Positions 12,726-29,965 of a stretch of DNA of 64,000 bases are shown in pieces. Numbering within the stretch: position 1 is the stretch's first letter; every line of letters begins with the position of its first letter. A program made the position numbers and the translations under genes. The stretch is taken from contig OY761611.1 in assembly GCA_963664875.1 (NCBI GenBank), positions 2,240,001 through 2,304,000 of the forward strand, written 5' to 3'. The notes under the pieces were generated by a model. That model made no database searches and was not told the origin of the DNA. It saw only the letters and a program-made list of their open reading frames with translations. The DNA comes from Candidatus Kapaibacterium sp. (GTDB lineage Bacteria; Bacteroidota; Ignavibacteria; Kapaibacteriales; UBA2268).

Positions 12726-13775
12726 CTACTTAGTGATTGTAAGCATTATTGTATCGATTTTTGTTTCTTCTGCGTAGATAGATACCGTATAGGTTCCCGA
12801 GGAAAGATTGGAAATATCGTATGATGAAACATTTGAGTTTTGAGTAGTTTCAAATACAACATTACCTAATACATCTGTTACTATGATGTTGTAAACCTGT
12901 TTGCTGTAATCGTCGATCCTTACGGTCAAATTGTCATCAGCCGGATTTGGAGATACTTTTACAGTAGTTCCGATATTATCAGTAGTTGCCAATTTACCTG
13001 CACTTGCCTCAAAGTAAGTATTTAAATCAGCACAAGAGTATTTACAATCCAAATCAGGGCATACATCTTCTCCTGCATAGTCCACAACTACCTCTCTTAC
13101 ACCATTGTTTATGGTAATAGTATTCGGAGGATTAAATCCTTCATCGTATCCAAAATGCCAATAGGCTATGCAGCACGGAGAACCATCACACCCCATCATG
13201 GAAACATCAGAATGGAATATAATTTCTCCTGTTTCAGAATCGTAATGAAAAGGCATTTCCGGCCAATATTCATCTCCTTTTAAAGCAACTAATCTTTTAT
13301 CGATTGCAACAAAACCAATTTCTTCATTTTTTGATTTGCATGTTGCAGTACTTGCTACCCATACTTGTGCATCCATGGTGCTAGTGTTTTGTGTGAATTT
13401 TTCAATAAGCTTTATTTCCAAATATCCGAAGATATCTACAATGCCGTTCAAATCACGGAAACCACCATTGACCAAATCATAGAAATTATGAGTACATCCG
13501 GGCTGAGATTCGTTAATATCTACCCTCGTTACAGAAATGGCAGGTAAGCCATTAGGCATTGTTGCTATGTAATATTCGTACATAACATAACAGCCGCAAG
13601 GGAGTTGCATCATTTCGACTCTACGATCGCCCCATACAACTGTTTCATTCAAGATTTTGTCGCAAGGCGGTTTGCCTTCGAATCTTTCTTCTGTGTGAGC
13701 GAAAGTATTGGTAGGAATACCAAAAGAAAAAGCTAGCAAGATGCATAAAAGCATGAGCTGAATAAAATTTTTCAT
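12726..13775 (-). CDS. Cysteine-rich secreted protein with T9SS CTD, unknown function
   Basis: Signal peptide; about 11 Cys in the mature region (PCGC, GCDGSPCC, CPDLDCKYSC); CTD VSPNPA..DVLG..LSSGTY. Confidence 0.8.
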   Translation of the reverse strand: MKNFIQLMLLCILLAFSFGIPTNTFAHTEERFEGKPPCDKILNETVVWGDRRVEMMQLPCGCYVMYEYYIATMPNGLPAISVTRVDINESQPGCTHNFYDLVNGGFRDLNGIVDIFGYLEIKLIEKFTQNTSTMDAQVWVASTATCKSKNEEIGFVAIDKRLVALKGDEYWPEMPFHYDSETGEIIFHSDVSMMGCDGSPCCIAYWHFGYDEGFNPPNTITINNGVREVVVDYAGEDVCPDLDCKYSCADLNTYFEASAGKLATTDNIGTTVKVSPNPADDNLTVRIDDYSKQVYNIIVTDVLGNVVFETTQNSNVSSYDISNLSSGTYTVSIYAEETKIDTIMLTITK

Positions 13776-14046: not shown

Positions 14047-14180
14047 ATGCACAAAAAAAACCGCAGTATTGTAAAAATAACTGCGGTTTTAGATTCTTAG
14101 ATTTTATAGTAAAATCAATAAACAGAATAATCCTATCTATACACTACAAATCTGCCATTTATAAACTTATCATTTGCCAC
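14047..14180. repeat. Repeat A copy 2 (134 bp; native 3' end of the FN3-repeat gene plus terminator)
   Basis: Identical to 11056..11189; includes the codons for VANDKFINGRFVVYR-stop. Confidence 0.95.
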
Positions 14181-16766
14181 GATTGTGTAAGTGTAAACAC
14201 CCGCTACCAAGTCGCTGACATTTAGGCGAATTGTTTGTGTGCCGGCGGCTAATTGCTGCATTGGAAGAGCAATAACTTTGCTGCCTGATGCATCAAAGAT
14301 ATCCACAGTAACATTAGTTAACGTGCTTAGCTCTAAGCTAATGGAAGTTTCAGTCTGAGCCGGATTAGGATAAACATTAACATCGCCACCAAATTCCTGA
14401 TAATCAGCAACAGAAGTTTCATCTTCTGTAGTAAACGAATAAACCGGAGACCAAGTAGTTTCACCAGCTTCGTTGTATGCTTTTATTCTCCAGAAATAAG
14501 TAGTATTGTAATCCAAATCCTGTAGATAAAGGTCATTAGTCCAGTAATTTTCTTTTTCGTAAACCATGTTGCCGAACTGATTATCTTTAGCTACCTGCAC
14601 ATGGTAATACAAAGCATTTGGCACTACAGCCCATTCTAAAGTAATGTCAGTAAGCATTTCAGTAGCATTGTCAGCAGGGAATACCAAAACAACATCGCCT
14701 TCTGGAGCTTTCATAATTGTTCTAAATTTCCAGGCTTCAGACCACTGAGAGTAACCTGAATCATTAAGAGCACGAACTCTCCAGTAGTATTGAGTATTGT
14801 TTTTCAAGCCGCTATATGAAGCAGTAGTGTCTGCCAAATCTTTAAGCTCAGCAGTAAGAGTAACAAAAGCGTCGCGTTCTGCGATTTGCAATTCGTAAGA
14901 GTCCGCACCTTCAGTAGTAAACCAAGTGAAAGTGATATTAGTATCCAATTTTGTTTCGCTCTTCGCCGGGTACTCTAACATAGGTTTAGCAGGACCTGCA
15001 ATAATAGTAGTGAAAGCATAAGCTTGAGACCAAGGACCATTACCTTCTGCATTGCGAGCGTAAACTCTCCACCAATATTTAGTGTTAGGAGCAAAAATAG
15101 CAGCTTGCACGCTATTGGCAGGAATGTCTCTGACTTCAGTTACAGGATTAGCAAACAAAGAGTCAGTTGCTACTTCAACAACATAAGTTTCGGCAAGCGG
15201 CACTGATGTCCATCTGAAAAGCACATTGTGAACTACATCAATAGCACCATCAGCAGGGAAAGTAAGCTCAGGAGCACCAATAGAAGTTCTAAATTTGTGA
15301 GTTTCAGTCCATTCACTTTCGCAATCGCCAAGCATTGCTTTCACGCGCCAGAAATAATTAGTATTAAAAGTGTCAAGAGCAAAAGCAAAAGAGTTATTGA
15401 TACCTGTGAGAGTGTCCAAAATCAATAAAGTATCAACGAAGTTAGAATCTTTGCTAAGTTGCAATCTGTAGTTATCGTGAGCATCAGCAAATGACCATGC
15501 AAATTCCATAATTTTGCTGATACCTGTCATATTTTGAGCAGGGAAAGTAAGCACAGGAGCCAATAAAGCACTTGTAAAGCTATGAATTTCGCTCCATTCG
15601 CCGGTGTTTTTAGCATCCATGGCTCTAACTCTCCAGAAGAACTCATAGTTTGATCTATCAAGAGGAACAACTACAAAGTTTGTATCTATATCAGCAACAT
15701 CAAAAGCGATGTGATTGACAAAATCATTTGTATATGCTATCTGAATCTGATAAGCATCTGCATTAGGAACTTCAGTCCACTCAAAAGCAGCATTGATATC
15801 AACGCAAAGAGCTTCGTGTTCCGGCATAGTAGTAGCCGGAGCTTCGTAGCGAGTCCAAAAAGCAAAAACATCAGAGTAGTCAGACCAGCATGAGTTAGTG
15901 TCGCCTTTAACTTTCCAGAAGTACTTAGTACCTTTTGCAAGTTCGGAAACAGAGTAGCTTGTGTCAGTGGTCATGAAAATCTGAGCATCGTCGAAGTTTT
16001 CTTTGTCAGCCACCATTAACTGATAATTTTGGAACTCTACATCAGCAGACCAAAGGAGATTGACATTTACATCTAAATTAGATGCGTTATTTGCAGGAGT
16101 CAAAGCAATTGGTTTTTGAGCAGCAGTTGTAACTCTGAATGTCTGAGACCAATCAGATTTGCAGTTAAGATATTCTCTTCTGACTTTCCAGAAGTAGTCT
16201 GTCAAAAAGCCACTTAAATGTCCAATATAGAAGTTAGTGTCAACTTCTTCGAAATGGATGGTATCAGTGAAGTCAACATTTGTAGAAATCCAAATTTCGT
16301 AAGTGTTGCTTGCATCTGCTTCTGTCCAAGAGAATTCTACATTCTGAGGCAGACAGGAAGTATTGTTATCCGGCAAAGTAAGCACTACCGGCTCAGTTTC
16401 AGTAGCAAAAGTGTATTCCATAGAGTACTCAGTAGTGTAATCATCAAAAGTAGTGATTACTCTCCAGAAATAATCAGTAGAAAAGTTAGGCAAATCAACT
16501 GTAACTGCGTTAGTGTCCACAGTCTGATTTGTTACGAAAGTAGAAAAATCCTGAGCAGCAGATACCTGAAGGACATAGTTCATGACCCTGTTAGAGTCTT
16601 TTACAGTCCAAGTAAATTCTGTGGAAATTTCCTGACATATTGCATTGTTAGCAGGTGATTGCAACACAGCAGCGTCGAAGGAAAACAGACTGCCTGTGCT
16701 TACAATGCTTACCAACAGAAGCAATAAGAAGTGTCTTAATAATTTGCTATTTAGCCTCATGGCCAA
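14133..16766 (-). CDS. T9SS cargo protein with ~8 tandem fibronectin type III-like repeats
   Basis: Repeated ~90-aa unit P.L..P....F.W......Y.LQ....F...YFWRV.A....S.WS....F.T; signal peptide; CTD VYPNPA..AGVYTY. Confidence 0.88.
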   Translation of the reverse strand: MAMRLNSKLLRHFLLLLLVSIVSTGSLFSFDAAVLQSPANNAICQEISTEFTWTVKDSNRVMNYVLQVSAAQDFSTFVTNQTVDTNAVTVDLPNFSTDYFWRVITTFDDYTTEYSMEYTFATETEPVVLTLPDNNTSCLPQNVEFSWTEADASNTYEIWISTNVDFTDTIHFEEVDTNFYIGHLSGFLTDYFWKVRREYLNCKSDWSQTFRVTTAAQKPIALTPANNASNLDVNVNLLWSADVEFQNYQLMVADKENFDDAQIFMTTDTSYSVSELAKGTKYFWKVKGDTNSCWSDYSDVFAFWTRYEAPATTMPEHEALCVDINAAFEWTEVPNADAYQIQIAYTNDFVNHIAFDVADIDTNFVVVPLDRSNYEFFWRVRAMDAKNTGEWSEIHSFTSALLAPVLTFPAQNMTGISKIMEFAWSFADAHDNYRLQLSKDSNFVDTLLILDTLTGINNSFAFALDTFNTNYFWRVKAMLGDCESEWTETHKFRTSIGAPELTFPADGAIDVVHNVLFRWTSVPLAETYVVEVATDSLFANPVTEVRDIPANSVQAAIFAPNTKYWWRVYARNAEGNGPWSQAYAFTTIIAGPAKPMLEYPAKSETKLDTNITFTWFTTEGADSYELQIAERDAFVTLTAELKDLADTTASYSGLKNNTQYYWRVRALNDSGYSQWSEAWKFRTIMKAPEGDVVLVFPADNATEMLTDITLEWAVVPNALYYHVQVAKDNQFGNMVYEKENYWTNDLYLQDLDYNTTYFWRIKAYNEAGETTWSPVYSFTTEDETSVADYQEFGGDVNVYPNPAQTETSISLELSTLTNVTVDIFDASGSKVIALPMQQLAAGTQTIRLNVSDLVAGVYTYTIVANDKFINGRFVVYR

Positions 16767-16905
16767 ACTCCAAGTTGTGATTAAAACTATATATTTAGCT
16801 GTATATTACAAATTTACGGATAAATGGATAAAGTTCATTATTAATAATGTTGCATATTTGTAGCATTATTTTGTTAGTTTAGTTCTTTAATATCAAGACA
16901 TTACA

Positions 16906-16922
16906 TGCAAAAATCATACCGA
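16906..16922 (-). promoter_or_regulatory. Putative sigma-54 -24/-12 site upstream of the FN3-repeat gene
   Basis: Minus strand TCGGTATGATTTTTGCA (GG-N10-GC). A Bacteroidota-type TAAATTTG -7 box is also present at ~16809-16816. Confidence 0.35.
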
Positions 16923-17481
16923 TATATATTGGCGAAAAATAATATCAATATTTGCTATACCTTATAATATAAGACACATTTAGAGTAAAAAAGTTATTCT
17001 TGCACCCTGAATAGAGAGAAAGCAAAGAATTTGTCTATATTTTCCGTGATAGGCATACTATTGCACTTTGATATTTAAAACGATTTCTGCAATTAGCTAT
17101 GACCTTATCTGTCAATTTTATTACTATCAAATCCGATTAAAATAAAATATTCTGAAATTAAAACACTCAGCTGTCAGAATTGAATTCGAACATAGTTATT
17201 TTTTGCACAAAGAGAATCCTATATAGGCGATTTTTAGCAATTATAGGCTATTATAAAGTTTCTTTTATCTGTATTAACATTGAAATTACTTTAGACTAAA
17301 GTAGAAATAAAATACTTAGAGATGCGTATTAATAATAAGTGCCTTTGACTTTGGTATTTTCTTTTATATTACTGATAAATTGGTAGTCCCACTTTTCATA
17401 TAAACACAAAAGATGCGACTGCTTCAGTCTAATCTAAAATGGCAATCATTGTTATTATCAAATATTTTTGAGGGAATCGCT

Positions 17482-17988
17482 ATGAAAAAGAATGTTACAC
17501 TAATCTCCTTATTTGCATTTGTAGCTTTGCTGTTTGCTACGGCTTTAGCTCAAAAACCTGCACCGGCAAACGTTGCTGCGGCACTTACCGTAAAGATTGC
17601 GGGTTTTAACAAAAATCTCACAGGAGATATTACTATCTATGTTGTCGGCAATGATGACATAGCATCTGAGTTAAAAAAAGCAGTAGGCAAACCTCTCGGT
17701 GGTGGTACTTTAAAAAGTGTAACTACCGGTAGCGGAGCACCTTCTTCTAAACCATCTATTATTTTTATTTCTAATGCAGGTGCAGTTGGAGCTATTACAA
17801 AATACTCAAGAGCAAACAAAGTGCTTACAGTAACTAACGATCCGGGTATCGTTTCTGATGGTGCTACTCTTGGTGTAGTGGTTGGCGATGACGGCAAACC
17901 AAAAATCTTACTTAACCTAACTTCATCTGTAGAAGAAGGCGTAGATTGGAACCCTGCAATTATGAAAGTAGCTCAAACAATTAAGTAA
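17482..17988 (+). CDS. YfiR/HmsC family (DUF4154) periplasmic protein
   Basis: Start moved to ATG 17482 (GAGGG RBS, signal peptide). Family-like C-terminal pattern KVLTVT..VSDGATLGV...GKPKILLNL..S..EG. Confidence 0.75.
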   Translation: MKKNVTLISLFAFVALLFATALAQKPAPANVAAALTVKIAGFNKNLTGDITIYVVGNDDIASELKKAVGKPLGGGTLKSVTTGSGAPSSKPSIIFISNAGAVGAITKYSRANKVLTVTNDPGIVSDGATLGVVVGDDGKPKILLNLTSSVEEGVDWNPAIMKVAQTIK

Positions 17989-18009
17989 CAGATGTGGTTG
18001 GGATTTTAT

Positions 18010-21000
18010 ATGAATACAAAATCGATTAAGTTCAAAATACTGTTGCTGATTGCAGGTATCGACATTGTTTTGTCACTGATTCTTGCGATTTATGCTCCTC
18101 AGCAGGCTGAAAGCATGGGTAACAGTATAACAAATCAGAATGCTAATTTTATTGCCGAACTTGTAGCAGAAAATGTATCTTTGGGCCTTCAGACTATGAT
18201 TATAGATGACGGTGCAGCTCTTCAGCAAACACTTGACATACTGAAGCCCAAAAGTGACAAAAGTAAAAAAGACAAAGCTAAAGAAGCGGAAACTATCTCG
18301 AATGTATATGTTTATGATGCAGATCTTGCTCTTTTAAAAGCAACTGACACTGCAGCGACTGCTAAACAAAAGAATTTTAAAAAATCAAAAAATATAGAAT
18401 TCAAACACACAGATGATTTGCTTACAGCTTGGATGCCGGTAAAAGATGCTGATGCCAATGTGCAGGGCTACGTGCAGATAGATTTCTCGTTGGATTATCT
18501 CAATCAACGCGTCTCCGAACAAAGTGCTACTTTTGCTACTATTGCTGTTATAGTATTCATCCTGACAATGATACTTGGTTACTTCTTCCTTAACACAATG
18601 GTTAAGAAGCTGGTAGTCATCACTGATGCCGCACAAAAAATTGCTGTCGGCGATGTAGATATTACTATTGATGTAGTCTCGAATGACGAAATAGGCCAGT
18701 TAGCCGAATCTTTCAAAGAAATTATTCAAAGCTTTAAAGACAAAGCCAATGTGGCTATTGAAATTGCAAACGGTAATCTTAACGTCCGTGCAAATGTGCT
18801 TTCTGAGAAGGACATTCTTGGTTCGTCCATGAATACTATGAAAGACAACATCAGCAATTTGGCCAAAGATGTCAAATCACTCGCTTTAGACGCACAAAAT
18901 GGTGTTTTAGATTCTAGAGCAGACATCAGCAAACATCAGGGCGACTTTAGAGTAATTGTAGAAGGTATGAATAACACTCTCGATTCTGTAATTAGCCCAC
19001 TAAATATGGCAGCAAATTACATTGATAGAATATCTAAGGGTGATTTGCCTGAAAAAATCAAAGATGAGTTTAAAGGTGAATTTAATACAATCAAAAACAA
19101 CCTAAATATTGCGATTGATGCAATTGGGGCTCTAATCGCCGATGCGAATATGCTTGCAGGAGCTGCAGTTAGCGGTAACCTTGGTGCCAGAGCCGACGTT
19201 ACTAAACATCAAGGCGATTTCAGAGCTATCATCGAAGGTGTCAATAATACATTAGATGCTGTTATTGCTCCATTAAATCTTACTGCTGACTACATCGACA
19301 GAATTTCTAAGGGCGATATCCCAGATAAAATTACTCAAGCATACAAAGGTGAATTTAATACCCTAATTAATAACCTCAATGTATGTATTGGCGCTATAGA
19401 CAATATGATAGAAGACACAATGTCGCTTGTTAGTGCTGCTGCAGAAGGCAAGCTCAAAAACAGAGCTCAGGCAGACAGACATCAGGGTGATTTCAGAAAA
19501 ATCATTCAGGGATTTAACGATACTTTAGATAATATTCTTACACCTGTAAATGATGCAATGGCTGCTGTAGCAAAACAGGCAAAAGGCGAATTTGCAATCA
19601 TAGACAAAGTTTACAAAGGCGACTACGAAACAATCAAACGCAATGTAAACGATGTATCAAGAGCATTTACAGCGATTACGGAGCAATTCAACAACCTTTC
19701 TGAAGCAGGCAATGCAGGCAATCTTAGTTTCCGCGGTGATGCAACAGAATTCCAGGGAGATTTCCAGAAAATAGTTGAAATAGTAAACCAAACTCTTGAT
19801 AATATCCTAACACCGCTAAATGAAGCAATGGATGCACTCGCCGAAGTTGCTCAAGGTAATTTTGTAGTTATAGACAAAGTTTATAATGGTGATTATGAAG
19901 GTATCAAGCAAAACGTAAATAATGTTTCTAATGCCATGATAGAGATGAAAGGGCAATTTAATTTGCTATCTAATGCAGGCACGAACGGTAATCTTCAATT
20001 CCGTGGCAATGCGGAGCAGTTCCATGGCGATTTCAAAGAGATAGTTCTAATTGTCAATCAAACTTTAGACAATATACTTACTCCTCTCAATGAAGCAATG
20101 AATGCTTTGGCTGAAGTTGCCCAAGGTAACTTGTTTGTTATCGAAAAGCAATATCAAGGCGATTATGAAACAATCAAGCAGAATGTAAACAACGTTTCTA
20201 AAACACTAATCGACATGACACACCAATTTGAATTGCTTGCCGATGCAGGTGACAATGGCAAATTGAGTTACCGTGGCAACGCAGACCAATTCCAGGGAGA
20301 TTTCAAAAAAATCGTTCAAATTGTTAATCAGTCATTAGATAATATCATCAATCCTTTGTATATGACAGCGGACAATCTAAACCGCATATCTAAGGGAGAT
20401 ATTCCTCCTATAATTAAAGATGACTACAAAGGTGATTTCAACGAAATTAAAGAAAGCATCAATCAGTGTATCACTGCAGTTAACAACCTTGTTGCAGATG
20501 CAAATATGCTTGCAGAGTCTGCCGTCTCCGGTAACTTAAATGTTAGGGCAGATGCCGGCAAACATCAAGGTGATTTTGCTAGAGTTATCGAAGGTGTAAA
20601 TAATACTCTTGATGCAATTGTTGATCCTATCAATGAAGCAAACGAAGTCTTAAGTGTGTTGGCAACCGGGGACTTTACTGTGCAGATGCATGGAAATTAC
20701 CGAGGTGATCACCAAAAAATCAAAGAAAATATCAACACACTTGTATTTTCTCTTTCTAAACTAATTCGACAGCTTAACGAAGCAGTAGATACAGTAAGTA
20801 ATTCGACAAATCACATTTCTACAATCACTGACACTATGGTTATTGCGGCAAACAACCAAAATAATCAGATAGAAGAAGTAGCCACTGCGATAGAGGAAAT
20901 GAGCAAAACTGTATATGACAATGCAAATGCAGCAACTCAAACTGCCTCAATGGCGCAGGACAATGGTAGCATTGCTCAAGATGGCGGCAAAATTGTAGAA

Positions 21001-21663
21001 CAAACCGTTCATAAAATGAGAGACATTGCAGCTGTTGTAAATCAATCTGCTGAAAAAATTGCTGCTCTTGGTGAGTCCGGAAAGGCTATTGGCGAGATTG
21101 TCTCTGTTATCAATGACATTGCTGATCAGACCAACCTGCTTGCATTAAACGCAGCTATAGAAGCTGCCAGAGCTGGCGAGCAGGGAAGAGGCTTTGCGGT
21201 AGTAGCTGATGAAGTGAGAAAACTTGCAGAAAGAACGACTGATGCTACAAAACAAATCGCCGGAATGATTAAAAACATTCAAGACGAAACACAAGATGCA
21301 GTTCGAGTGATGACTCATGGTAACGAAGAGGTAACTGTAGGTATCGAATATGCTGATAAAGCAGGTCAGGCACTTCGTTCTATTTTGAACAGTTCGGATC
21401 AGCTTCTTGGCATGATTAGTCAAATAGCTGCTGCTAACGAAGAGCAATCTGCTACTAGTGAACAGCTCGCTAAAAATGTTACTTCCATATCTGCTGTTAC
21501 TAATGATTCGACTCAAAAGATGCAAGAAATTGCCGGCTCTACAGAGGATTTGGTCAGACTTACAACTGAGCTGACTGAAATCATGGGACAGTTTGTTATT
21601 GAAGATATTAACAGTCATGGTTATAACAGATTAGATCATGGGGGACGGAAACTAAAGCCATAG
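18010..21663 (+). CDS. Methyl-accepting chemotaxis protein with periplasmic sensor domain and long poly-HAMP array
   Basis: Two TM helices, HAMP ([10 protein letters not shown]), seven N.LD...P repeats, signalling hairpin [40 protein letters not shown]. Alternative start at 17992. Confidence 0.95.
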
Positions 21664-21693
21664 ATATTTCTAATTCCACAAAATAAATTGCAA

Positions 21694-21729
21694 TCCGGGC
21701 AGTAAAGCACACTTCTAAATCTGCCCGGA
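21694..21729 (+). other. Intercistronic stem-loop
   Basis: Perfect 9-bp stem TCCGGGCAG-N18-CTGCCCGGA without a U-tract. Confidence 0.55.
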
Positions 21730-21757
21730 AAGCAAATAGTTTCAACTCGGAGGCATT

Positions 21758-23923
21758 ATGAAAAAGATGTTCCTATCTCTGATTGTTTTAATCACATTTT
21801 CAATGAATTTATCTGCCCAAGAGACTGATGAGTTATTAGATATGTCTCTTGATGAGCTTATGAATATCAAAGTAGTTTCTTCTACTAAAAAGGCAGAAAA
21901 AATCAGTAAAGCACCAAGTGTTATTAATAGTATCAGCAAACAGCAAAGAGACACTTACGGCTGGAATACAATTAATGACATTCTTTTTGCTCAACCCGGT
22001 TTTTTTCATTCCATCGACTTTGATCGACACACTGTAGGTTTCAGAGGAGCCTCAGAAAGTTGGAACAATAACCACTTGTTGATGCTAATCGATGGTATTC
22101 CTTACAATGACAACCAATATGGCTCAGCTTATACTTCAGAAGTTACTCCTTTGTTTTTTGCAAACAATATTGAAATAATTCGTGGCCCAGGCTCCGCATT
22201 ATATGGCTCAAACGCTACAAACGGCGTAATAAGCATCAATTCTGTAACCCCTAAAAAGGGTGAAAGCTCAATGGATATGCGTATGAGCTACGGCAGTTTT
22301 AATACAATGTCATTTGATGTGCTAAGCAATTACGATACTGACATTGCTTCTTTCAGCGTTGGCTACAATAAGTTTAAAACTGACGGTTTCGAATATGAAA
22401 CAGTAGATGGCTCAGGCCGTGCGAATGAAGCCGGAACATTACTAAAATTTGAAACTAACGACAACAGAAACAGCGACTACTTATATGCAAAAGTTCTCCC
22501 TAAGGGTGCACTTGAAGGATTGATGTTGCAGGTACATTTCCAAAGGTGGGAATTCGAAACAAATTATGGTTGGTTGTTTGCAGTGCCTGACATTGAAGAA
22601 TCTATGCACGAAAGCAGAAATATGATAGCACTTCGCTACAAACCGGAACTCGAAGGTCCGTTGCAGTTTGAAATTACAAGCAGATACCAGTATCACAAAA
22701 TCAACTGGTTTATGCAATTGTATCAGCATGGTGCTTTTGATAACTTTTATCCAGCAGGAGTAAATGAGTATCTGATAACAAATACAGAAGATTTATTCAC
22801 TAGAGTGCAGCTATCTTATGACTTCAATGATATAGGAACATCATTGTTGCTTGGTGCAGAATCAGATATCTTTTGGTATGGTGGCGAAGATAAGGAGCAT
22901 TCTTCGAATGTTGACCTTTCCGATACAGGCGAGCCGTTTCCTAACGGAGAAATGAGACCTTTAGGTCAATGGTTAGGCTGGATTGGCGATAATAAAGTAA
23001 TGAACTACGCAGCTTTCCTACAATTAACAAGTGGCAGTATCTTTTCTGATGATTTATCTGCTGTAGCAGGTTTCAGATATGACTATCAATCATTCGATTT
23101 CTTCACACTTGATGGGGCTGATCCTACCGCAACTCAGAATAAAACATTTTCACAGGTAGGCCCACGTATAGGATTAGTTTATCATCCAACTGAAGCTTTG
23201 TCTTTCAAAGCATTATTTGGTAAAGCATTCAGAGCGCCATCCCCTACTGAAATGTTTGGAGCTAACACATGGACGCTTGCTTCAAATGTCTCTACTATTA
23301 AACCTGAAGAGATTTACACAGCTGATTTTGCGATTGATTATATGCTAAATACAAATATCAATCTAAAATTGAATGCTTTTTACTCTGACTTCAGAAACAA
23401 AACAGCATATTCGCCAACAGGCAATAATGCCATTGCTAACATTTACAGCACTGAAACCGCCGGAGCAGAATTTGAAGTAAACTTCAAAATAGACGCTTTC
23501 TCAGGTTATCTCAATTACTCCTATACTCATCTTTTAGAAGAGACAATAGCCGAAGAGCAAAAAGTAGCAATATTTGAATCCGATGAGATTGTATGGGCAC
23601 CAAAAATGCTCCTCAAATACGGGATCAGTTACAAGCTGAGCGATTTTAGATTTACTTTGGCAGGCATTTACACAGATAAATTTCTGCGAAGAACAAGCGA
23701 CAATCTAATAGCTTCTAATTTAGATTTAAGAGGCAAAGAAGTAGATGCAAGTTTGGTATTAGACTTTAAAGCAGAGTATCAGATTTTAAAAAATATTAGA
23801 ATCAATGTGAAATTGAATAATATTCTCGATGCAGAATATTATATAATCAAAAATACTGACATGCCTTTCGACTATAAAATGCCGGGCATGAATTTATTAA
23901 GTCAAATAATTGTAGATATCTAA
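21758..23923 (+). CDS. TonB-dependent receptor 1
   Basis: GGAGG RBS, signal peptide, plug motifs LMLIDG and IEIIRGPGSALYGSNATNGVI, beta-barrel motifs (GKAFRAPS, NILD). Confidence 0.93.
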   Translation: MKKMFLSLIVLITFSMNLSAQETDELLDMSLDELMNIKVVSSTKKAEKISKAPSVINSISKQQRDTYGWNTINDILFAQPGFFHSIDFDRHTVGFRGASESWNNNHLLMLIDGIPYNDNQYGSAYTSEVTPLFFANNIEIIRGPGSALYGSNATNGVISINSVTPKKGESSMDMRMSYGSFNTMSFDVLSNYDTDIASFSVGYNKFKTDGFEYETVDGSGRANEAGTLLKFETNDNRNSDYLYAKVLPKGALEGLMLQVHFQRWEFETNYGWLFAVPDIEESMHESRNMIALRYKPELEGPLQFEITSRYQYHKINWFMQLYQHGAFDNFYPAGVNEYLITNTEDLFTRVQLSYDFNDIGTSLLLGAESDIFWYGGEDKEHSSNVDLSDTGEPFPNGEMRPLGQWLGWIGDNKVMNYAAFLQLTSGSIFSDDLSAVAGFRYDYQSFDFFTLDGADPTATQNKTFSQVGPRIGLVYHPTEALSFKALFGKAFRAPSPTEMFGANTWTLASNVSTIKPEEIYTADFAIDYMLNTNINLKLNAFYSDFRNKTAYSPTGNNAIANIYSTETAGAEFEVNFKIDAFSGYLNYSYTHLLEETIAEEQKVAIFESDEIVWAPKMLLKYGISYKLSDFRFTLAGIYTDKFLRRTSDNLIASNLDLRGKEVDASLVLDFKAEYQILKNIRINVKLNNILDAEYYIIKNTDMPFDYKMPGMNLLSQIIVDI

Positions 23924-23934
23924 TCAAATATATC

Positions 23935-23974
23935 AGGGTATGACTTACTTTGAAAGTAAGTCTGCCCTTTTTTT
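23935..23974 (+). terminator. Terminator-like hairpin between the two TBDR genes
   Basis: AGGGTA-T-GACTTACT-TTGAA-AGTAAGTC-TGCCCT followed by a T-run. Confidence 0.6.
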
Positions 23975-23988
23975 ATACAGGAGGATGT

Positions 23989-26007
23989 ATGAATTACAAA
24001 TTACTTCTATCTATTCTAATTGTTTTTTCCGCAATTAGTATGAAAGCTCAGGAGACTGATGAGTTATTAGATATGTCTCTTGACGAGCTTATGAATATCG
24101 AAGTTAGTGTTGCTTCTAAAAAAGCAGAATCTATCAATGATGCTCCGGGAATTATCACGGTAGTTACAAAGCATGAAATTGAAGGTTTTGGAGCTCAGCA
24201 TCTTGGTGATGTAATAAATAGAGTTGTCTCTATGTCTTTCCTTTCTGCAAACGTTTTTACAGATAATATTGCTAATATGCGTGCATCCGCTACTACTCCT
24301 TACGATAATCACGTGCTTATTCTCATGAATGGCAGACCAGTGAGAGATCCTATTTCAGGTGGCTTGAATCAGGCTGTTTATACAGGCTTCCCACTTGATA
24401 TGATTGAACGACTTGAGATTATCCGAGGTCCCGGCTCTGTACTTTATGGGTCTTGTGCTTATGCAGGAGTAATCAATATAGTAACTAAACAAGCTAAGCA
24501 AAACGAACAACACGGCACTATGGGCTTGACTTTAGGCAATGAAGAAACTTATGGCGGTAACGGATATATTGGTTTTGCTAAAGGTGATTTTAGTGCTAAT
24601 GTTGGTGTTATGGGATATTATACAGCCGGTCCTGAATTTGATTTTACTGATTATTCTAATGTAACAGATACTAATCATTTCTGGAGAAAAAATATTTCCG
24701 TAGCCGGTACTTTTAAGTTATCAGATTTCCAGGTAAATACTTTCTACTCTAATTACAGACCATACGGATTGAACGGACCTGATAACTCGTGGGATTATCC
24801 TGAAGAAGGTAAAAATCTTAATGACCACGAAGTATTTATGTTTGACTTAGGTTATTCTAAAGAAGTAAACAAATTCTTAGATATAAATGCAAATATTACT
24901 TTCAATAACCATTATTGGAATCAGGATGCCGGAACAGAAATGACTGCTCATGAGTTCCTTTCTGAATTGATGCTTGCTATTCATCCGATGGAAGATATGA
25001 ATATTTTGCTCGGTGGTACATTTATCAAATCAAAACAGATCAGTTCCCGATTTATTGGCGAGATTATGGATCAACTCGATGTTAACTCTTCAGTTTATAC
25101 TCAAATAGACTACCGCCCAATCGAAAACTTAAAATTGATTGCCGGTGCTCAGATGAATATGATTGAAGGATTAGATGCTAACATCTCTCCGCGTGTAGGT
25201 GCTATCTATAACTTCAATAAAGAACTCGGTGTAAAATTGCTTTACAGCTCAGCATTCAGAAAAGCCTACCCGTTAGAATACGGATTTAACCATCCTGTAT
25301 TCAGAGGTAATCCTGACATAAGTCCTGAACTTATAAATACCTTAGAAGCTCAGATTTTCTACCAAAAAGAAAAATTGTCATTAGCACTTACATTTTATAA
25401 TAGTGTGATGAATGATATCATCATCCGAACATGGTATGATGACCCTTCTGTTGATGTCGGTGGTGGCTACTTGAAATACGGCAACGGAAAAGATTTTACG
25501 TTTATGGGTATTGAGTTTGAAGCCAAGTATAGCTTTGACAGAAATTGGTTAGCTCTTGCATCATTCAACTGGCAAACCAATAAAAACCCTAACGGTTTAG
25601 GCGATGGTCAAGAACTGGAAAATGCGACATTGCATCCAAATATAATGGCAAAAGGCGGAATACTATACGATCAGGAAAAACTATCGATTGGTGTATTTGC
25701 ATCAATGTTTGGTGAGCCATACTCAGTGAACGAATACTACGGATATGAGCAAGACTCTGACAATTACAATAAACTTGTAGTAAATGAAGAAGGTGAATCA
25801 TATATATTGCTTTCTGCAAAAGCTACATTGAAATTAGATAAATTGCTACCTTTGAATACTGCCTATGGAGTAAATCTATCAATAGAAGCAGAAAACTTGC
25901 TTGATGAAACTATTAGATACCCTGAATTTACATCTAAAGGTAAAAATACTCTTATTCCTTTGAAATCAGGAATGGGATTATATGGAATAATATCTATAGT
26001 GTTCTAA
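23989..26007 (+). CDS. TonB-dependent receptor 2
   Basis: Start moved to ATG 23989 (AGGAGG RBS); plug LEIIRGPGSVLYGS..GVINIVTK; C-terminal Phe. Confidence 0.93.
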   Translation: MNYKLLLSILIVFSAISMKAQETDELLDMSLDELMNIEVSVASKKAESINDAPGIITVVTKHEIEGFGAQHLGDVINRVVSMSFLSANVFTDNIANMRASATTPYDNHVLILMNGRPVRDPISGGLNQAVYTGFPLDMIERLEIIRGPGSVLYGSCAYAGVINIVTKQAKQNEQHGTMGLTLGNEETYGGNGYIGFAKGDFSANVGVMGYYTAGPEFDFTDYSNVTDTNHFWRKNISVAGTFKLSDFQVNTFYSNYRPYGLNGPDNSWDYPEEGKNLNDHEVFMFDLGYSKEVNKFLDINANITFNNHYWNQDAGTEMTAHEFLSELMLAIHPMEDMNILLGGTFIKSKQISSRFIGEIMDQLDVNSSVYTQIDYRPIENLKLIAGAQMNMIEGLDANISPRVGAIYNFNKELGVKLLYSSAFRKAYPLEYGFNHPVFRGNPDISPELINTLEAQIFYQKEKLSLALTFYNSVMNDIIIRTWYDDPSVDVGGGYLKYGNGKDFTFMGIEFEAKYSFDRNWLALASFNWQTNKNPNGLGDGQELENATLHPNIMAKGGILYDQEKLSIGVFASMFGEPYSVNEYYGYEQDSDNYNKLVVNEEGESYILLSAKATLKLDKLLPLNTAYGVNLSIEAENLLDETIRYPEFTSKGKNTLIPLKSGMGLYGIISIVF

Positions 26008-26034
26008 GTCTTTTTTGGGCTTTCTACTTTTTTC

Positions 26035-26064
26035 AGGGTGGTTTTTAAATTAAAGCCACCCTTT
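26035..26064 (+). terminator. Intrinsic terminator
   Basis: AGGGTGGTTT..AAAGCCACCCT followed by a T-rich tail. Confidence 0.7.
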
Positions 26065-26122
26065 GTATTTTAAGTTGTACTAAATAATGATAAATGTTGC
26101 TTATTAAAGGGTAGAATGACCT

Positions 26123-26497
26123 ATGAAAAGAATACTGATTTATGACGGAGATTGTGGTATCTGCTCTTATCTTGCCGCTTATGTTACAAAACGAACAAAA
26201 TCGCCATTGCATGCCTTGCCCGAAATTACGTCGGAGATTGAGAAAGATTATGGAGAAGAGCTGTCCGCTATGGCTAAATCAGGGGTATTGTTTATCGAGG
26301 CAGGGAGTGTCTTTTATAAAACACAAGCTGTAGGCAAATGTTTATTATTATTGCCCTATCCGATAAAGCTGTTGGCTTATTTGTTTACAAATAAAATGTT
26401 GGCTTACTTGTTTAATCCTATATATGATCTCATTGCGAGAAACCGACATAAAATATCGAGGTTATTCGGATTGGCAAGTTGCAAAATTAAATCCTGA
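26123..26497 (+). CDS. DCC1-like thiol-disulfide oxidoreductase family (DUF393)
   Basis: YDGDCGIC (DxxCxxC) at the N-terminus and YDLIARNR motif. Confidence 0.88.
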   Translation: MKRILIYDGDCGICSYLAAYVTKRTKSPLHALPEITSEIEKDYGEELSAMAKSGVLFIEAGSVFYKTQAVGKCLLLLPYPIKLLAYLFTNKMLAYLFNPIYDLIARNRHKISRLFGLASCKIKS

Positions 26498-29400
26498 TTG
26501 ACATTACCCTTTCGATTTCTTCTAAAAGTCCATCGAAGTTAATGGGTTTAGTTATTCTACCGGAAAATCCATAATCTCTATAGTTTGCAACAATGGACTT
26601 ATCCGAATGTGCACTACAAACTATGGCTCTAATTTCAGGATTAAGTACAAGCAGTTTATTTAAAGTCTCTTCTCCTTCCATACCGCCTACGATAGTCAAA
26701 TCAAGAATCGCCAAGTCAAATGGTCGGCTTGTAAGATAAGCTTTTTGATATTCAATCAAAGCAGTTTCTCCTTTTGAGACAGAAACTACATTATGACCTG
26801 AAAGTTCTAATATTTCGGTCATACTTATTCGAAGTGCGTCATCGTCGTCCATGAGAAGGATTCGGTAACTGTTTTTCCTGATGATTTTTTCCTCAATCTG
26901 TTTTTTCACCATGATGCCATTCTTGTTAGCAGGCAAAAATATATTGAATTCTGTACCGATATTTTCCTGAGAGTGGACTTTGATAAAGCCTTTATGTTTT
27001 TTTATAATGAGATTGACAGTAGCAAGACCGAGACCGTGCCCGTTATCTTTAGTAGTAAAAAACGGATCGAATACCTTGCTTATTATGTTTTCAGGGATAC
27101 CAATACCTTCATCTCGGACAGATATTTTAACAAAATCGCCTGTAAACTTATTTACTTTAGGATTATCCAGAGTGCAGTTTTCGACATCTACATATATCTT
27201 GCCTTGCTTATTTTCCATAGCTTGTTTTGAGTTAAGGAAAAGATTAGTAAAAACTTCAGTAATTTGTTTTGTATCAATCTCAACATTCCAGACTTTGCGG
27301 TCATAATTATTAATATGCTGAACATTAGTACCACCAAGAGCTATACTTAGCGATTCATCAATAACTTCGCAAACATTAGCTATTTCTCTGACAGGTTCGC
27401 CTCCGGAAGAAAATGTCTGGAATCTGAGAGCAATAGCATTTGCCTGAGCGATAGTCTTTTCGATTCTGTCTGCATAGATATTAAGTTTGTCAGGTTTGCG
27501 TCTCGCCAAATCTACAGAAAGGCTAATCGAAGCAAGCATATTTTTAAAGTTATGTGCAATACCACTTGCGAGGACGCTTAGAGATTCGAGTTTTGCCATC
27601 TTTGTTAACTCTTCTTCAGCATATTTCCTTGCTGTAATATCGAGTATAAACCCTTCCAACCAGATAAGCCTGTCATTTTCGTATAGACCAATACCGTTTT
27701 CTTCTACCCATTTATAATTTCCGGTGATTCCTTGAATTCTGTATTCAATTCTAAAAGATTCGAGTTTAGCAACGGCATCGTTTATTGAACCCCTGACGTA
27801 ATCAAAATCCTCAGGATGAATAAGACTGTCGTAAGTCTTTGCTCCGTTCAGGAATAATTCTTTTGCATACCCGGTAAGTTTTTCAATTTCATCATTGAGA
27901 TAAATCATTGTATAATTAGCATCATTTTCGCAAAGGTATATAGTACCCGGGACATTTTCCGCAAGCAATCTGAATTGAGTTTCGCTCTGTCTTATTTTTG
28001 TTTCAGCTTCATTTCTCTCAGTAATATCTTCTATGGCAGCCTGAACTCCTATCACTTTGCCATTGTCAAACACAGGTGAAAGATAAGATTTCAAATAAAG
28101 ATTTTTTCCAAATCTGGAGTAGTAAGGAAATTCTGCAACAACATTTTGCTTTGAGTCAATACACTGTTCAAAATATTGAAATGTAGAAAACTTAAGGATA
28201 GAATCCTGCGACAAAATATTCTCACCAAGGCTCGCTTCTTTGCCGGGGGAACCTACCATATTTAGCATAGCAGTATTAATATCAAGGATATCTCCATCAA
28301 GATTCATATAAATGATACCAATTGGAGTATTTTCAAAGAGTCCTCTGTATTTTTGCTCGTTTTCAGAAATAATCGCTCTGGAATGTAATAGTTCCTGTTC
28401 CGCTCTTTTCCTTTGAGTGATATCGTGAACTATCGAATAGAGTCTTATCTTTCCGCCAATTTGCACTTTGCCGGCGTAAGATTCGATATCTCTGATTTCA
28501 CCATTAGCGAGTCTGTGCTTGAATTCAAAGTGATTTCTTTGCTCAGTAAAAGCCTTTTGAATTTCAACGGTAATTTGCTCAGGAGTAAGAATATTGATAT
28601 TGCTGATATTTATTCTTGTTATTTCTTCGTAGGTGTAGCCATAGTAACGACACGCAGCTTCATTAGCATCTAAAATATCGCCGGTTTCAGGTTCGATAAG
28701 AAGCATAATACTGTAGCTCGTTCTGAACAAAGACTCATACCGGTCTCTCGCTTCTGAAAGCTCTTTTTCGAGTTTTCGCTTTATTTGGAGATTATAGGCT
28801 AAAATAAAAATGATTAGAACAACAAGAGTGAGAAGAAAAGCGACTATGTAAAAAGTATTTTTACTAATAAAAATTATCTCTTGGGGCTGATTTATAAGCC
28901 TTGCATGTTCGGAAATATTGGCGAGATAAAGTCCAAATTTTTTGAGTACTTCAAAATCAAAAACAAGGGTATTCGGACTTTTTTTAATAACTTTTATTTT
29001 CGCCGGAGATGTCCCGTTAAATATAGAATCTACAAGCAACAATGCAGTTTTTGCCTGATTGGCATGACTGATTAGCTTTCCACCTGCGATACCGTCTCCG
29101 AGTCCATGCTCCCAAAGATGATAGACAGGAATCTTTGCCTTCTCTATAATCTTTTTCAGGCTGTATTCGAAAGTATAGTTTTTGTTTTCTGCATCTATAA
29201 AGCCGGAAAGAAGTAAAAATGCTTTATTCCCTTTGATTTTATCTATTTCATTTAAAAATCTGTCTAATTTGTACAAACTAAAATCCATTTCCGTAAATTT
29301 GATTTTTGGAAACTTTGAAGCCTCGGCGAAGAAATTCCTTTTATCCGCAAGCCCGGTTTCAGTATCATCTGTGATCGCAATAATTTCCTGTAAATTCGGA

Positions 29401-29894
29401 TTTAATTCATTTGCATGCTTTATAGTTTCATAGACAGATATATCTTCTACTACGCCGGTTACAAATTTATTTGTATCCTGTGAGTGAGCAAGTTCTTTGT
29501 TGTTGATGCCCCAAAATACAATAGGTATCCTTTGGAACAGGCTGTCTTGCATTTGCAATACAAATTGAAGTGCAAAGTCATCTGAAACAAGGACTAAGTC
29601 GAGATCAGTACATTTTTTGCGAACATATTCAAATCTTTCTTTGAGAATTGGAATATAATCGCTACTATTATATTTCTTTGCGTATAAGAACTGTGTTTCT
29701 ATCTGATTGTTGGTTTCCTTGGCATAAGCGTCAAGCACAGGCTTGATTTTTTCATAAGTCGGAAAATTCGGACTATAGGAATTAATATATAAAATATGCC
29801 TGCCTTCGTGTGCCGAGCATAACAAAGGAAAGATTGCAATGAAAAGAATTATATATTTTTGTATTCCCATATATATTATATACAAAGTAGGCAT
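26487..29894 (-). CDS. Hybrid sensor histidine kinase (periplasmic substrate-binding-like domain, TM, 3 PAS, HisKA/HATPase, receiver)
   Basis: INSY..SDDFAL..PIVFWGIN binding domain, GIAHNFKN H-box, PFFTTK..GHGLGL, receiver ILLMDDD..DLAILD..KP. Confidence 0.92.
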   Translation of the reverse strand: MPTLYIIYMGIQKYIILFIAIFPLLCSAHEGRHILYINSYSPNFPTYEKIKPVLDAYAKETNNQIETQFLYAKKYNSSDYIPILKERFEYVRKKCTDLDLVLVSDDFALQFVLQMQDSLFQRIPIVFWGINNKELAHSQDTNKFVTGVVEDISVYETIKHANELNPNLQEIIAITDDTETGLADKRNFFAEASKFPKIKFTEMDFSLYKLDRFLNEIDKIKGNKAFLLLSGFIDAENKNYTFEYSLKKIIEKAKIPVYHLWEHGLGDGIAGGKLISHANQAKTALLLVDSIFNGTSPAKIKVIKKSPNTLVFDFEVLKKFGLYLANISEHARLINQPQEIIFISKNTFYIVAFLLTLVVLIIFILAYNLQIKRKLEKELSEARDRYESLFRTSYSIMLLIEPETGDILDANEAACRYYGYTYEEITRINISNINILTPEQITVEIQKAFTEQRNHFEFKHRLANGEIRDIESYAGKVQIGGKIRLYSIVHDITQRKRAEQELLHSRAIISENEQKYRGLFENTPIGIIYMNLDGDILDINTAMLNMVGSPGKEASLGENILSQDSILKFSTFQYFEQCIDSKQNVVAEFPYYSRFGKNLYLKSYLSPVFDNGKVIGVQAAIEDITERNEAETKIRQSETQFRLLAENVPGTIYLCENDANYTMIYLNDEIEKLTGYAKELFLNGAKTYDSLIHPEDFDYVRGSINDAVAKLESFRIEYRIQGITGNYKWVEENGIGLYENDRLIWLEGFILDITARKYAEEELTKMAKLESLSVLASGIAHNFKNMLASISLSVDLARRKPDKLNIYADRIEKTIAQANAIALRFQTFSSGGEPVREIANVCEVIDESLSIALGGTNVQHINNYDRKVWNVEIDTKQITEVFTNLFLNSKQAMENKQGKIYVDVENCTLDNPKVNKFTGDFVKISVRDEGIGIPENIISKVFDPFFTTKDNGHGLGLATVNLIIKKHKGFIKVHSQENIGTEFNIFLPANKNGIMVKKQIEEKIIRKNSYRILLMDDDDALRISMTEILELSGHNVVSVSKGETALIEYQKAYLTSRPFDLAILDLTIVGGMEGEETLNKLLVLNPEIRAIVCSAHSDKSIVANYRDYGFSGRITKPINFDGLLEEIERVMSIRI

Positions 29895-29965
29895 ATATTT
29901 ATTTTAAGTATGTAGCCATAATATATGAAATATTTTATTAATTATACAAGTTGGTTTTTAAAAAT

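Follow-up and report, generated by a model that had tools for sequence, protein, structure and literature searches.

The window analysed here is the whole stretch of 64,000 nucleotides from Candidatus Kapaibacterium sp. (contig OY761611.1, positions 2,240,001 to 2,304,000), whose genome is a complete single contig of 3.83 Mb. At positions 17482..26007, it harbors a cluster of four co-oriented genes on the + strand, coding for a YfiR-like protein, a methyl-accepting chemotaxis protein (MCP), and two TonB-dependent receptors (TBDR1 and TBDR2), respectively, and closed by a terminator-like hairpin. This is the same layout that had been described in an earlier note on this DNA (hereafter, the original prediction). 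The open reading frames (ORFs) and the domains of the MCP are the following:

17482..17988, + strand: YfiR-like, putatively periplasmic protein (DUF4154, PF13689) of 168 aa, with its ATG at 17482.
18010..21663, + strand: MCP of 1217 aa (1223 aa from the alternative ATG at 17992), with HAMP, seven HAMP_2, and MCPsignal matches in Pfam.
18097..18528, + strand: periplasmic sensor domain of the MCP (residues ~30-173), PDC/Cache-like according to its model and to Foldseek, with no Pfam family.
18586..18732, + strand: canonical HAMP domain (PF00672; residues 199-247 of the ORF starting at 17992).
18733..20946, + strand: poly-HAMP stalk with seven HAMP_2 stretches (PF18947, E 1.6e-167), its extent being the space from HAMP to MCPsignal.
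20947..21501, + strand: MCP signalling domain (PF00015, E 2.7e-51, 174.3 bits; residues 986-1170 of the ORF starting at 17992).
21758..23923, + strand: TBDR1, 721 aa, with Plug and barrel domains (Pfam) and without STN.
23989..26007, + strand: TBDR2, 672 aa, with Plug and barrel domains (Pfam) and without STN; the ORF opens at 23950.

The product of the first gene had been assigned to the YfiR fold, and both the family profile and the structural model agree with this assignment. PF13689 (DUF4154, YfiR/HmsC-like) matches residues 56-187 of the long ORF with an E-value of 1.2e-11 and 45.4 bits, against a cut-off of 24.9, and the model of the protein (predicted local distance difference test, pLDDT, of 89.8 from an alignment of 26 sequences) retrieved with Foldseek the chain 4yn7_A (E 2.6e-4, template-modelling score 0.68/0.73, root-mean-square deviation 2.8 A over 142 columns), as well as the YfiR structures 4xjy and 4zhu and the YfiB-YfiR complexes 5eb1 and 6ikk. 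The link to the solved structures came from the fold search alone; a profile of the subfamily did not recover any YfiR by sequence at E ≤ 1 among them. The same model also superposes on halves of ABC (ATP-binding cassette)-type binding proteins, and the YfiR fold is described as only half of a binding protein. The N-terminus is signal-peptide-like, with a basic start, a hydrophobic core, and an end at ALA/QK, and the protein is predicted to be exported to the periplasm. It does not contain any cysteine. The subfamily to which it belongs is present in a single copy in the source genome and counts 83 listed homologues, all but two of which match PF13689; their C-terminus is nearly invariant around K-P-K-I-L-L-N and W-N-P-A-I.

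In the MCP, a first transmembrane helix (TM1, about residues 9-29) is followed by a periplasmic region of 144 aa (about residues 30-173), by a second helix (TM2, about residues 174-196), and then by HAMP, in agreement with the periplasmic domain of about 140 aa previously postulated. In the model of this region (40-sequence alignment, pLDDT 81), TM1 continues into a long helix, after which come a short helix and a sheet of five strands running into TM2. The best Foldseek domain matches were the extracellular domain of WalK/YycG (5is1 and 4ywz), KinD, and CitA, and the fold, as modelled, is PDC/Cache-like. The sensor is conserved in the 40 aligned homologues and occurs once in the source genome. 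The orthologous MCPs of other genomes are mostly 520-690 aa long; this implies that the poly-HAMP stalk is lineage-specific and not a trait of the module.

The sequence of the sensor does not fall into any Pfam sensor family. None of its 40 homologues reaches the cut-off of a Pfam sensor family, the sub-threshold matches being to ArlS_N, dCache_1, and CHASE8. WalK is the best structural match (5is1, 4ywz, and the integrative model 9a5d), but the likeness is limited to the fold and to the TM-HAMP layout: the NCBIfam WalK model is weakly matched by 39 of the 40 homologues (52.8 vs. 725 bits), and the accessory proteins are different, those regulating WalK being YycH and YycI. The NCBIfam model for DgcN/YfiN is weakly matched by 21 of the 40. 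Furthermore, the CHASE8 identity, for which a profile check had been suggested, was not recovered: CHASE8 gave no match on the window sensor at E ≤ 10, and the two homologues out of 40 that match it are both below the cut-off. Membership of CHASE8 was also tried by aligning the sensor with hhalign to the CHASE8 kinase encoded by the same genome and was rejected, the value being 96.5% with the transmembrane helices, sensor, and HAMP together and 11.6% (E 0.0026) with the periplasmic part alone. Because of this fall, we consider the sensor to resemble YfiN in layout without being a member of CHASE8, a family that PMC8846402 places in the Cache/PDC-like clan. A word-based search for longer proteins carrying the sensor domain retrieved ten matches, all of them MCPs, which are too few for a census of the outputs.

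A scan in which each species was represented by one genome yielded 53 loci with 57 genes of the YfiR subfamily, from Fibrobacterota, Calditrichota, KSB1, Zixibacteria, Acidobacteriota, Ignavibacteria-type Bacteroidota, Desulfobacterota, and others. In 41 of the 57 cases, the YfiR gene is followed within 350 bp, on the same strand and with no gene in between, by a gene for a transducer, and 38 of these transducers have the same sensor domain as the window MCP (BLASTP E < 1e-5 against its residues 1-200). As to their outputs, 34 of the 38 are MCPs, three are HAMP-GAF histidine kinases, and one is cut by a contig end; the remaining three of the 41 are MCPs whose sensor was not matched by BLAST, so that the MCPs amount to 37. 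Among the 16 other YfiR genes, three lie within 450 bp of a contig end, and those of L018 and L028 have an MCP with the same sensor nearby, but not as the next gene. The neighbourhood survey suggested in the original prediction thus shows that the coupling of YfiR to a downstream transducer is maintained across phyla, and, on sequence grounds, the YfiR-like protein and the sensor are the core of the system, while the output domain varies.

Moreover, among the 502 ORFs lying within 7 kb of the YfiR genes, the recurrent families are YfiR itself (52 loci), MCP/HAMP (48 loci), and TBDR (28 loci); any other family was found in at most 4 of the 53 loci, and neither ABC transporters, permeases, TonB-ExbBD, nor OmpA-like proteins are conserved. 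The finding of the same families together in 53 loci of other phyla implies that the arrangement goes beyond chance. The idea that the genes are juxtaposed by chance, the small ORF being functionally unrelated to its neighbours, is contradicted by this conserved synteny, as well as by the strong conservation of the C-terminal motif in the 83 homologues, and we consider it extremely improbable.

The distribution of the module is patchy. No member of the YfiR subfamily was retrieved at E ≤ 1e-10 from 120 other genomes of the same class (four of which are of the same family). Likewise, six genomes of the same family did not yield any TBDR2-like gene; homologues of 40-60% identity were found in distant phyla. 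Such a pattern is the one expected for a unit that moves or is often lost. An island signature was not seen in the base composition around the cluster.

The source genome harbors a second DUF4154 locus, which lacks a TBDR (G000:C1:1220539-1228254, corresponding to L013 1540-9255, - strand). The order of the genes in it is a dCache-PAS histidine kinase, DUF4154, a CHASE8-HAMP-PAS histidine kinase, a stand-alone receiver, and a REC-PAS histidine kinase. The location of this DUF4154 gene directly upstream of a CHASE8-HAMP kinase suggests that the order "DUF4154, then sensor" is a general rule.

The known system closest to the pair is YfiBNR of Pseudomonas aeruginosa and Escherichia coli (where YfiN is also called TpbB or DgcN), together with HmsCDE of Yersinia. 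As in YfiBNR, a DUF4154 gene of the YfiR fold lies directly upstream of the gene for an inner-membrane transducer, which has two transmembrane helices, a PAS/PDC-like periplasmic domain of about 140 aa, and HAMP, and a gene for an outer-membrane protein belongs to the cluster. Unlike in YfiBNR, the output of the window protein is MCPsignal, with no GGDEF; the outer-membrane gene codes for a 22-strand-type TBDR and not for an OmpA/Pal-like lipoprotein; and the YfiR-like protein, devoid of cysteines, does not reach any solved YfiR by sequence at E ≤ 1, just as the sensor remains below the CHASE8 cut-off. No OmpA-type domain was found on the window ORFs scanned with Pfam, nor is a family of this type recurrent in the 53 loci, a search that did not extend to the remainder of the genome. 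According to PMC4655355, YfiR keeps the cyclase YfiN repressed by acting on the periplasmic PAS domain of the latter, the outer-membrane lipoprotein YfiB sequesters YfiR, and a single conserved surface of YfiR serves for both partners.

By analogy with YfiR and YfiN, the YfiR-like protein would be located in the periplasm as the dedicated partner of the MCP sensor encoded 3-21 bp downstream; it would bind this sensor and set its signalling state, and the MCP, in turn, would act via CheW/CheA on the flagellar motor. We consider it quite probable that the two proteins are functional partners. The prediction of a complex between residues 24-168 of the YfiR-like protein and residues 29-176 of the MCP scored 0.00 twice in runs made without controls, and it speaks neither for nor against binding. 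The source genome contains 13 MCPsignal ORFs, mostly in frames of more than 1000 aa, six CheW-domain ORFs, two CheA (dimerisation domains), five flagellin genes, and eight TonB_C ORFs; the presence of CheW, CheA, and flagellins means that the chemoreceptor has a pathway and a motor to act on. Two flagellin genes are in tandem in the window itself, 7 kb downstream of the cluster (32947-33882 and 33935-34870, both on the - strand, 311 aa each, with Flagellin_N and Flagellin_C).

As far as the two receptors are concerned, Pfam assigned to TBDR1 and TBDR2 a Plug domain with 56.8 and 60.7 bits and a barrel with 124.4 and 72.4 bits, respectively, and neither STN nor any other signalling domain was found on either of them at E ≤ 0.01. 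TBDR2 likely starts at the ATG at 23989, because this is preceded by GGAGG and gives an N-terminus in agreement with those of the orthologues. The N-termini of both receptors have an acidic helix-like stretch, followed by a strand that ends with V-x-V/S-x-S/A and probably represents the TonB box. This N-terminal peptide had been singled out in the original prediction, and its motif was evaluated as a possible docking tag for YfiR. It turned out not to be specific and was rejected as such: 10 of the 29 Plug ORFs of the source genome carry it, and eight of the ten are found in unrelated contexts, with no DUF4154 gene next to them, so that it marks a broad class of TBDRs.

A FastTree phylogeny was constructed with 57 TBDRs, i.e., the 29 of the source genome and 28 of the 37 TBDR ORFs of the loci, those of at least 550 aa (nine fragments were dropped); the sample, being chosen by adjacency to YfiR, is biased. 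TBDR2 falls in a clade of 17 members with 100% support, 16 of which are adjacent to a YfiR gene, the other one being a paralogue from the source genome. The clade of TBDR1 holds only the orthologues from the two closest relatives (L014 and L015). The view that two receptors feed one MCP is thus weakened, as the TBDR2 type is widely kept with the pair, whereas TBDR1 is confined to these two relatives. In L014 and L015, a third TBDR directly follows TBDR2, and its orthologue in the source genome, 84% identical, lies 183 kb away. This orthologue carries the N-terminal motif and is located beside genes for a peroxiredoxin, a ferritin-like protein, and a Fur-family protein (G000:C1:2446005-2450172, L068).

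A TBDR gene is present within 6 kb of the YfiR gene in 28 of the 53 loci. According to our own arithmetic (29 Plug ORFs in 3.83 Mb), about 0.1 per locus would be expected by chance, and the excess is about five-fold; TBDRs are thus strongly enriched among the neighbours of the YfiR genes, in support of the original prediction. In 17 loci, 18 YfiR genes are directly preceded by a co-oriented TBDR gene, at a distance of 4-213 bp. This adjacency is clustered on the YfiR tree, with eight changes vs. a mean of 19.3 in shuffled data (none of the 500 shuffles was as low): it is present in Fibrobacterota, Calditrichota, KSB1, and the group of the window and absent from Zixibacteria, Acidobacteriota, and most of the Melioribacteraceae-type rows. 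Five genomes in which the pair has no TBDR beside it, and whose completeness is not given, were searched in full: three lack a TBDR2-like gene at E ≤ 1e-20, one has weak paralogues only, and one has two distant copies.

In the opposite direction, a search that started from TBDR2 and was blind to YfiR retrieved a match at E ≤ 1e-50 from two of 400 other genomes of the phylum. In both of them, the TBDR gene is followed by a DUF4154 gene and then by a gene for a CHASE8-HAMP membrane protein; the DUF4154 scores are 29.9 and 19.9 bits (the latter below the cut-off), those of CHASE8 are 36.5 and 30.5 bits vs. 27, and the two DUF4154 genes belong to a subfamily different from that of the window. On the basis of these sequences, the receptors of the TBDR2 type are a frequent, lineage-stable, and dispensable third part of the module. 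The role of the TBDR as a necessary outer-membrane sensor is, in turn, weakened by the lineages in which the pair stands without it and by the three genomes out of five that lack a TBDR2-like gene. That a TBDR is functionally tied to the pair by some route appears, on the whole, rather likely.

Two peculiar kinds of loci were observed in this analysis. In L076 (1495-3408; G390:C1:2887795-2889702), the TBDR2-like gene contains two in-frame stops (one TGA and one TAA), and the downstream DUF4154 and CHASE8-HAMP genes are open; the receptor may be decaying or carry sequencing errors. In L020 (214-9513) and L021 (1-8769), both from metagenome-assembled genomes of uncultured bacteria, the TBDR2-clade and YfiR-subfamily genes close a full chemotaxis operon (CheR, CheA, an unknown protein, CheD, CheB, another unknown protein, and two CheY-like receivers) without an MCP beside it; the gene that comes next in L021 is truncated at the contig end and codes for a periplasmic protein of the sugar-binding type.

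In principle, the following possibilities can be depicted for the relationship between the receptors and the pair. In one of them, the YfiR-like protein and the MCP would sense by themselves the state of the periplasm or of the envelope, just as YfiR and YfiN react to stress of the envelope and of redox, and the TBDRs would be bystander nutrient transporters that share with them the neighbourhood or the regulation. The 25 loci out of 53 without a TBDR within 6 kb fit with this possibility, as do the three of the five pair-bearing genomes devoid of a TBDR2-like gene, the labile TBDR content (the third TBDR of L014 and L015, whose orthologue is here 183 kb off), and two hairpins, one lying between the MCP and TBDR1 and the other between TBDR1 and TBDR2. 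These elements, about which the original prediction was silent, are located in the spacers of the cluster, which measure 3 or 21 bp between the YfiR-like protein and the MCP, depending on the start, 94 bp between the MCP and TBDR1, and 65 bp between TBDR1 and TBDR2. Together with the closing hairpin, they are the following:

21681..21742, + strand: imperfect hairpin in the MCP-TBDR1 spacer, with 22-nt arms that are 77% complementary and 18 nt apart, without a T-run.
23942..23962, + strand: terminator-like hairpin with a T-run in the TBDR1-TBDR2 spacer, with nine pairs, three of them GC, and the tail TGCCCTTTTT.
26035..26062, + strand: terminator-like hairpin closing the cluster, with an 11-bp stem, five GC, and a T-rich tail.

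The same possibility does not account for the roughly five-fold excess of TBDR adjacency, which involves one recurrent clade across phyla, nor for the fact that both TBDR2-like genes found by the YfiR-blind search adjoin DUF4154 and sensor genes. Furthermore, Pseudomonas YfiR is described as sensing redox through disulfides, a mechanism that cannot apply to a YfiR-like protein lacking cysteine. Taken as a whole, a self-sufficient envelope sensor with unrelated transporters as neighbours seems improbable to us.

A second possibility, advanced in the original prediction, is that a ligand at the surface makes the TBDR capture or release the YfiR-like protein, as YfiB does, with no need for transport; the protein captured or released would, in turn, free or block the sensor of the MCP and, through it, act on CheA. 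In favor of such a relay of proteins, the TBDR would take the place of YfiB, no OmpA-like gene being conserved nearby; the order is TBDR and then YfiR, closely spaced, in the 18 cases mentioned above; uptake genes are not conserved; and a sister trio with kinases is catalogued in NCBIfam. Substrate binding releases the TonB-box region of TBDRs, which also counts for a relay. On the other side, neither TBDR has STN or another signalling domain, the N-terminal motif is shared with receptors of other contexts, the pair stands without a TBDR in Zixibacteria, Acidobacteriota, and Melioribacteraceae-type lineages, and fused or longer forms (TBDR-YfiR or YfiR-MCP) were not found, which is, however, weak evidence. 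Hence, of the proposed rewiring of YfiBNR, one half is retained, in that the MCP stands where YfiN does and no OmpA/YfiB-like gene is conserved nearby, whereas nothing shows the TBDR to be a sequestering substitute for YfiB. We regard the relay as an unlikely route, although one to be kept in mind. The more general statement, i.e., that TBDR2-type receptors signal the occupancy by a ligand to a chemoreceptor through capture or release of the YfiR-like protein, and so represent a second TonB-dependent trans-envelope mode, independent of sigma factors, is, if anything, slightly less probable.

The explanation that we consider the best as a whole joins the pair to the admission of a ligand. In this scenario, the TBDRs, and TBDR2 above all, would supply the input by admitting a ligand whose size or scarcity puts it beyond the reach of porins; once in the periplasm, the ligand would be read by the YfiR-like protein, whose fold is half that of a binding protein, or by the sensor domain, and the outcome would be a cell that swims towards something that it could otherwise sense only after uptake. 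The existence of the pair without TBDRs implies that a periplasmic cue can be read by the pair alone; for this reason, and since the TBDRs have no special signalling part, admission is slightly favored over the relay. As a specific route, admission is a tentative proposal, well short of an even chance; the explanation as a whole, with the pair at its center, comes close to an even chance without reaching it.

Several data weigh against this explanation. Since the 53 loci were picked by their YfiR subfamily gene, they do not measure the frequency of TBDRs or sensors in the absence of YfiR. TBDR2-like genes also occur away from DUF4154 (one paralogue in the source genome and two in the genome G003), and TBDR-YfiR pairs without an adjacent sensor exist, either by themselves or closing a full che operon (L020, L021, and L044); these sensor-less pairs point to a direct relationship between TBDR and YfiR and thus count in favor of a relay. 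With NCBIfam, neither TBDR1 nor TBDR2 falls in a substrate class above the cut-off, and a clue to the ligand did not come from RNA elements either, given that no riboswitch emerged from the Rfam scan of 16500-26600, which returned nothing meaningful (one lncRNA match, E 0.83). Because of the two internal hairpins (21681-21742 and 23942-23962), a transcript common to all four genes is no more than a possibility. Finally, conservation near the module does not extend to any inner-membrane transporter, catabolic gene, or TonB-ExbBD; this lack of uptake genes fits with a purely sensory TBDR and equally with a protein relay.

The admission of a ligand to be read by a YfiR-like protein would recall LuxP-LuxQ, in that a periplasmic protein similar to a binding protein would dock on a sensor of the PDC type (the LuxP-LuxQ complex 2hj9 was one of the structures retrieved with the sensor model); MBP-Tar is a further parallel for sensing dependent on a binding protein. 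Unlike in these systems, the gene of the window partner is strictly adjacent to that of the receptor and lies outside an ABC transporter operon. As in the FecA/FecR/FecI transducers, an outer-membrane TBDR is genetically tied to a signalling protein of the cytoplasmic membrane; unlike in them, the TBDRs lack STN, and the output would be CheA and not transcription. In addition, no anti-sigma or ECF (extracytoplasmic function) sigma gene is present in the cluster, and no ECF sigma was found on the scanned neighbours (14133-16766, 26123-26497, 26487-29894, and 29951-32809).

The same three kinds of proteins are found in a trio of NCBIfam families, NF053590 (TOL_0244 family TBDR), NF053591 (TOL_0243 family YfiR-like protein), and NF053592 (YfiR-like protein-associated sensor histidine kinase). 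The likeness includes the order TBDR, YfiR-like, and sensor, shared by most of the related loci, and the match of the N-terminal region and plug of the TBDRs to the profile. The window cluster differs in having an MCP and not a kinase as output and in the order YfiR-like, MCP, TBDR1, and TBDR2. All its scores are far below the cut-offs: 28.8 vs. 125 bits for the YfiR-like protein (NF053591), 27.1 vs. 194 for the N-terminus of the MCP (NF053592), and 75.4 for TBDR1 and 97.5 for TBDR2 vs. 645 (NF053590), limited to profile positions 2-139 and 2-159, respectively. The second DUF4154/kinase pair of the genome is nearer, although still below (69.4 vs. 125 for NF053591 and 153.6 vs. 194 for NF053592).

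In the literature searched, with subscription journals outside its coverage, no published study was found on a module of TBDR, YfiR-like protein, and MCP or kinase, which is consistent with the earlier remark that no system with such wiring has been characterised. Only a protein relay from the TBDR, if it proves true, would make the cluster categorically new. To our knowledge, chemoreceptors are regarded as limited to sensing what arrives in the periplasm, and the sole established signalling route of TBDRs ends at ECF sigma factors. A module composed of a TBDR, a YfiR-type partner, and an MCP would extend chemotaxis to TonB-dependent substrates, e.g., siderophores, cofactors, and oligosaccharides, by admission or relay alike, and the YfiR partner-switch, which in Pseudomonas controls cyclic di-GMP (c-di-GMP), would be a general input device for MCPs, kinases, and cyclases. 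If the relay were true, flagellated bacteria could direct their swimming to molecules for which entry into the periplasm is never required, and kinases and c-di-GMP enzymes would be driven by the same device in the sister trios already catalogued. The module is compact, being made up of three proteins with one sensor domain of about 144 aa, and its natural hosts are mostly uncultured; among isolates, the source of L051 has the pair but no TBDR with it.

The surroundings of the cluster include an upstream region that probably contains its promoter:

16767..17481, no strand assigned: intergenic region of 715 bp upstream of the cluster, with no ORF of at least 80 aa.

Promoter-like consensus hexamers are present in it, e.g., at 17012-17041 and 17274-17302, with nothing beyond the hexamers, and inverted repeats were not found in this region. 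Just past the closing terminator, a gene for a DCC1-like thiol-disulfide oxidoreductase (26123-26497, + strand) shows no tie to the cluster in the related loci. It is followed by a gene convergent with the cluster (26487-29894, - strand), coding for a hybrid histidine kinase with several PAS domains, HisKA/HATPase, and a receiver; the N-terminal part of this kinase weakly matches ABC_sub_bind (21.8 bits, below the cut-off), a family of binding proteins, one half of which is similar to the YfiR fold in structure.

Finally, parts of a type IX system are present in this flagellated genome: the window encodes an SprA-like protein of 2318 aa (41926-48882, + strand), and type IX C-terminal sorting domains are carried by three proteins (399-1736, 12726-13775, and 14133-16766, all on the - strand). 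Elsewhere in the genome (G000:C1:1752023-1756232, L072), the genes for a BlaR1-peptidase protein ending in a TonB C-terminal domain and for a BlaI-type repressor are divergent from a TBDR gene bearing the N-terminal motif; here, too, a TBDR is combined in an uncommon way with a signalling protein of the membrane.

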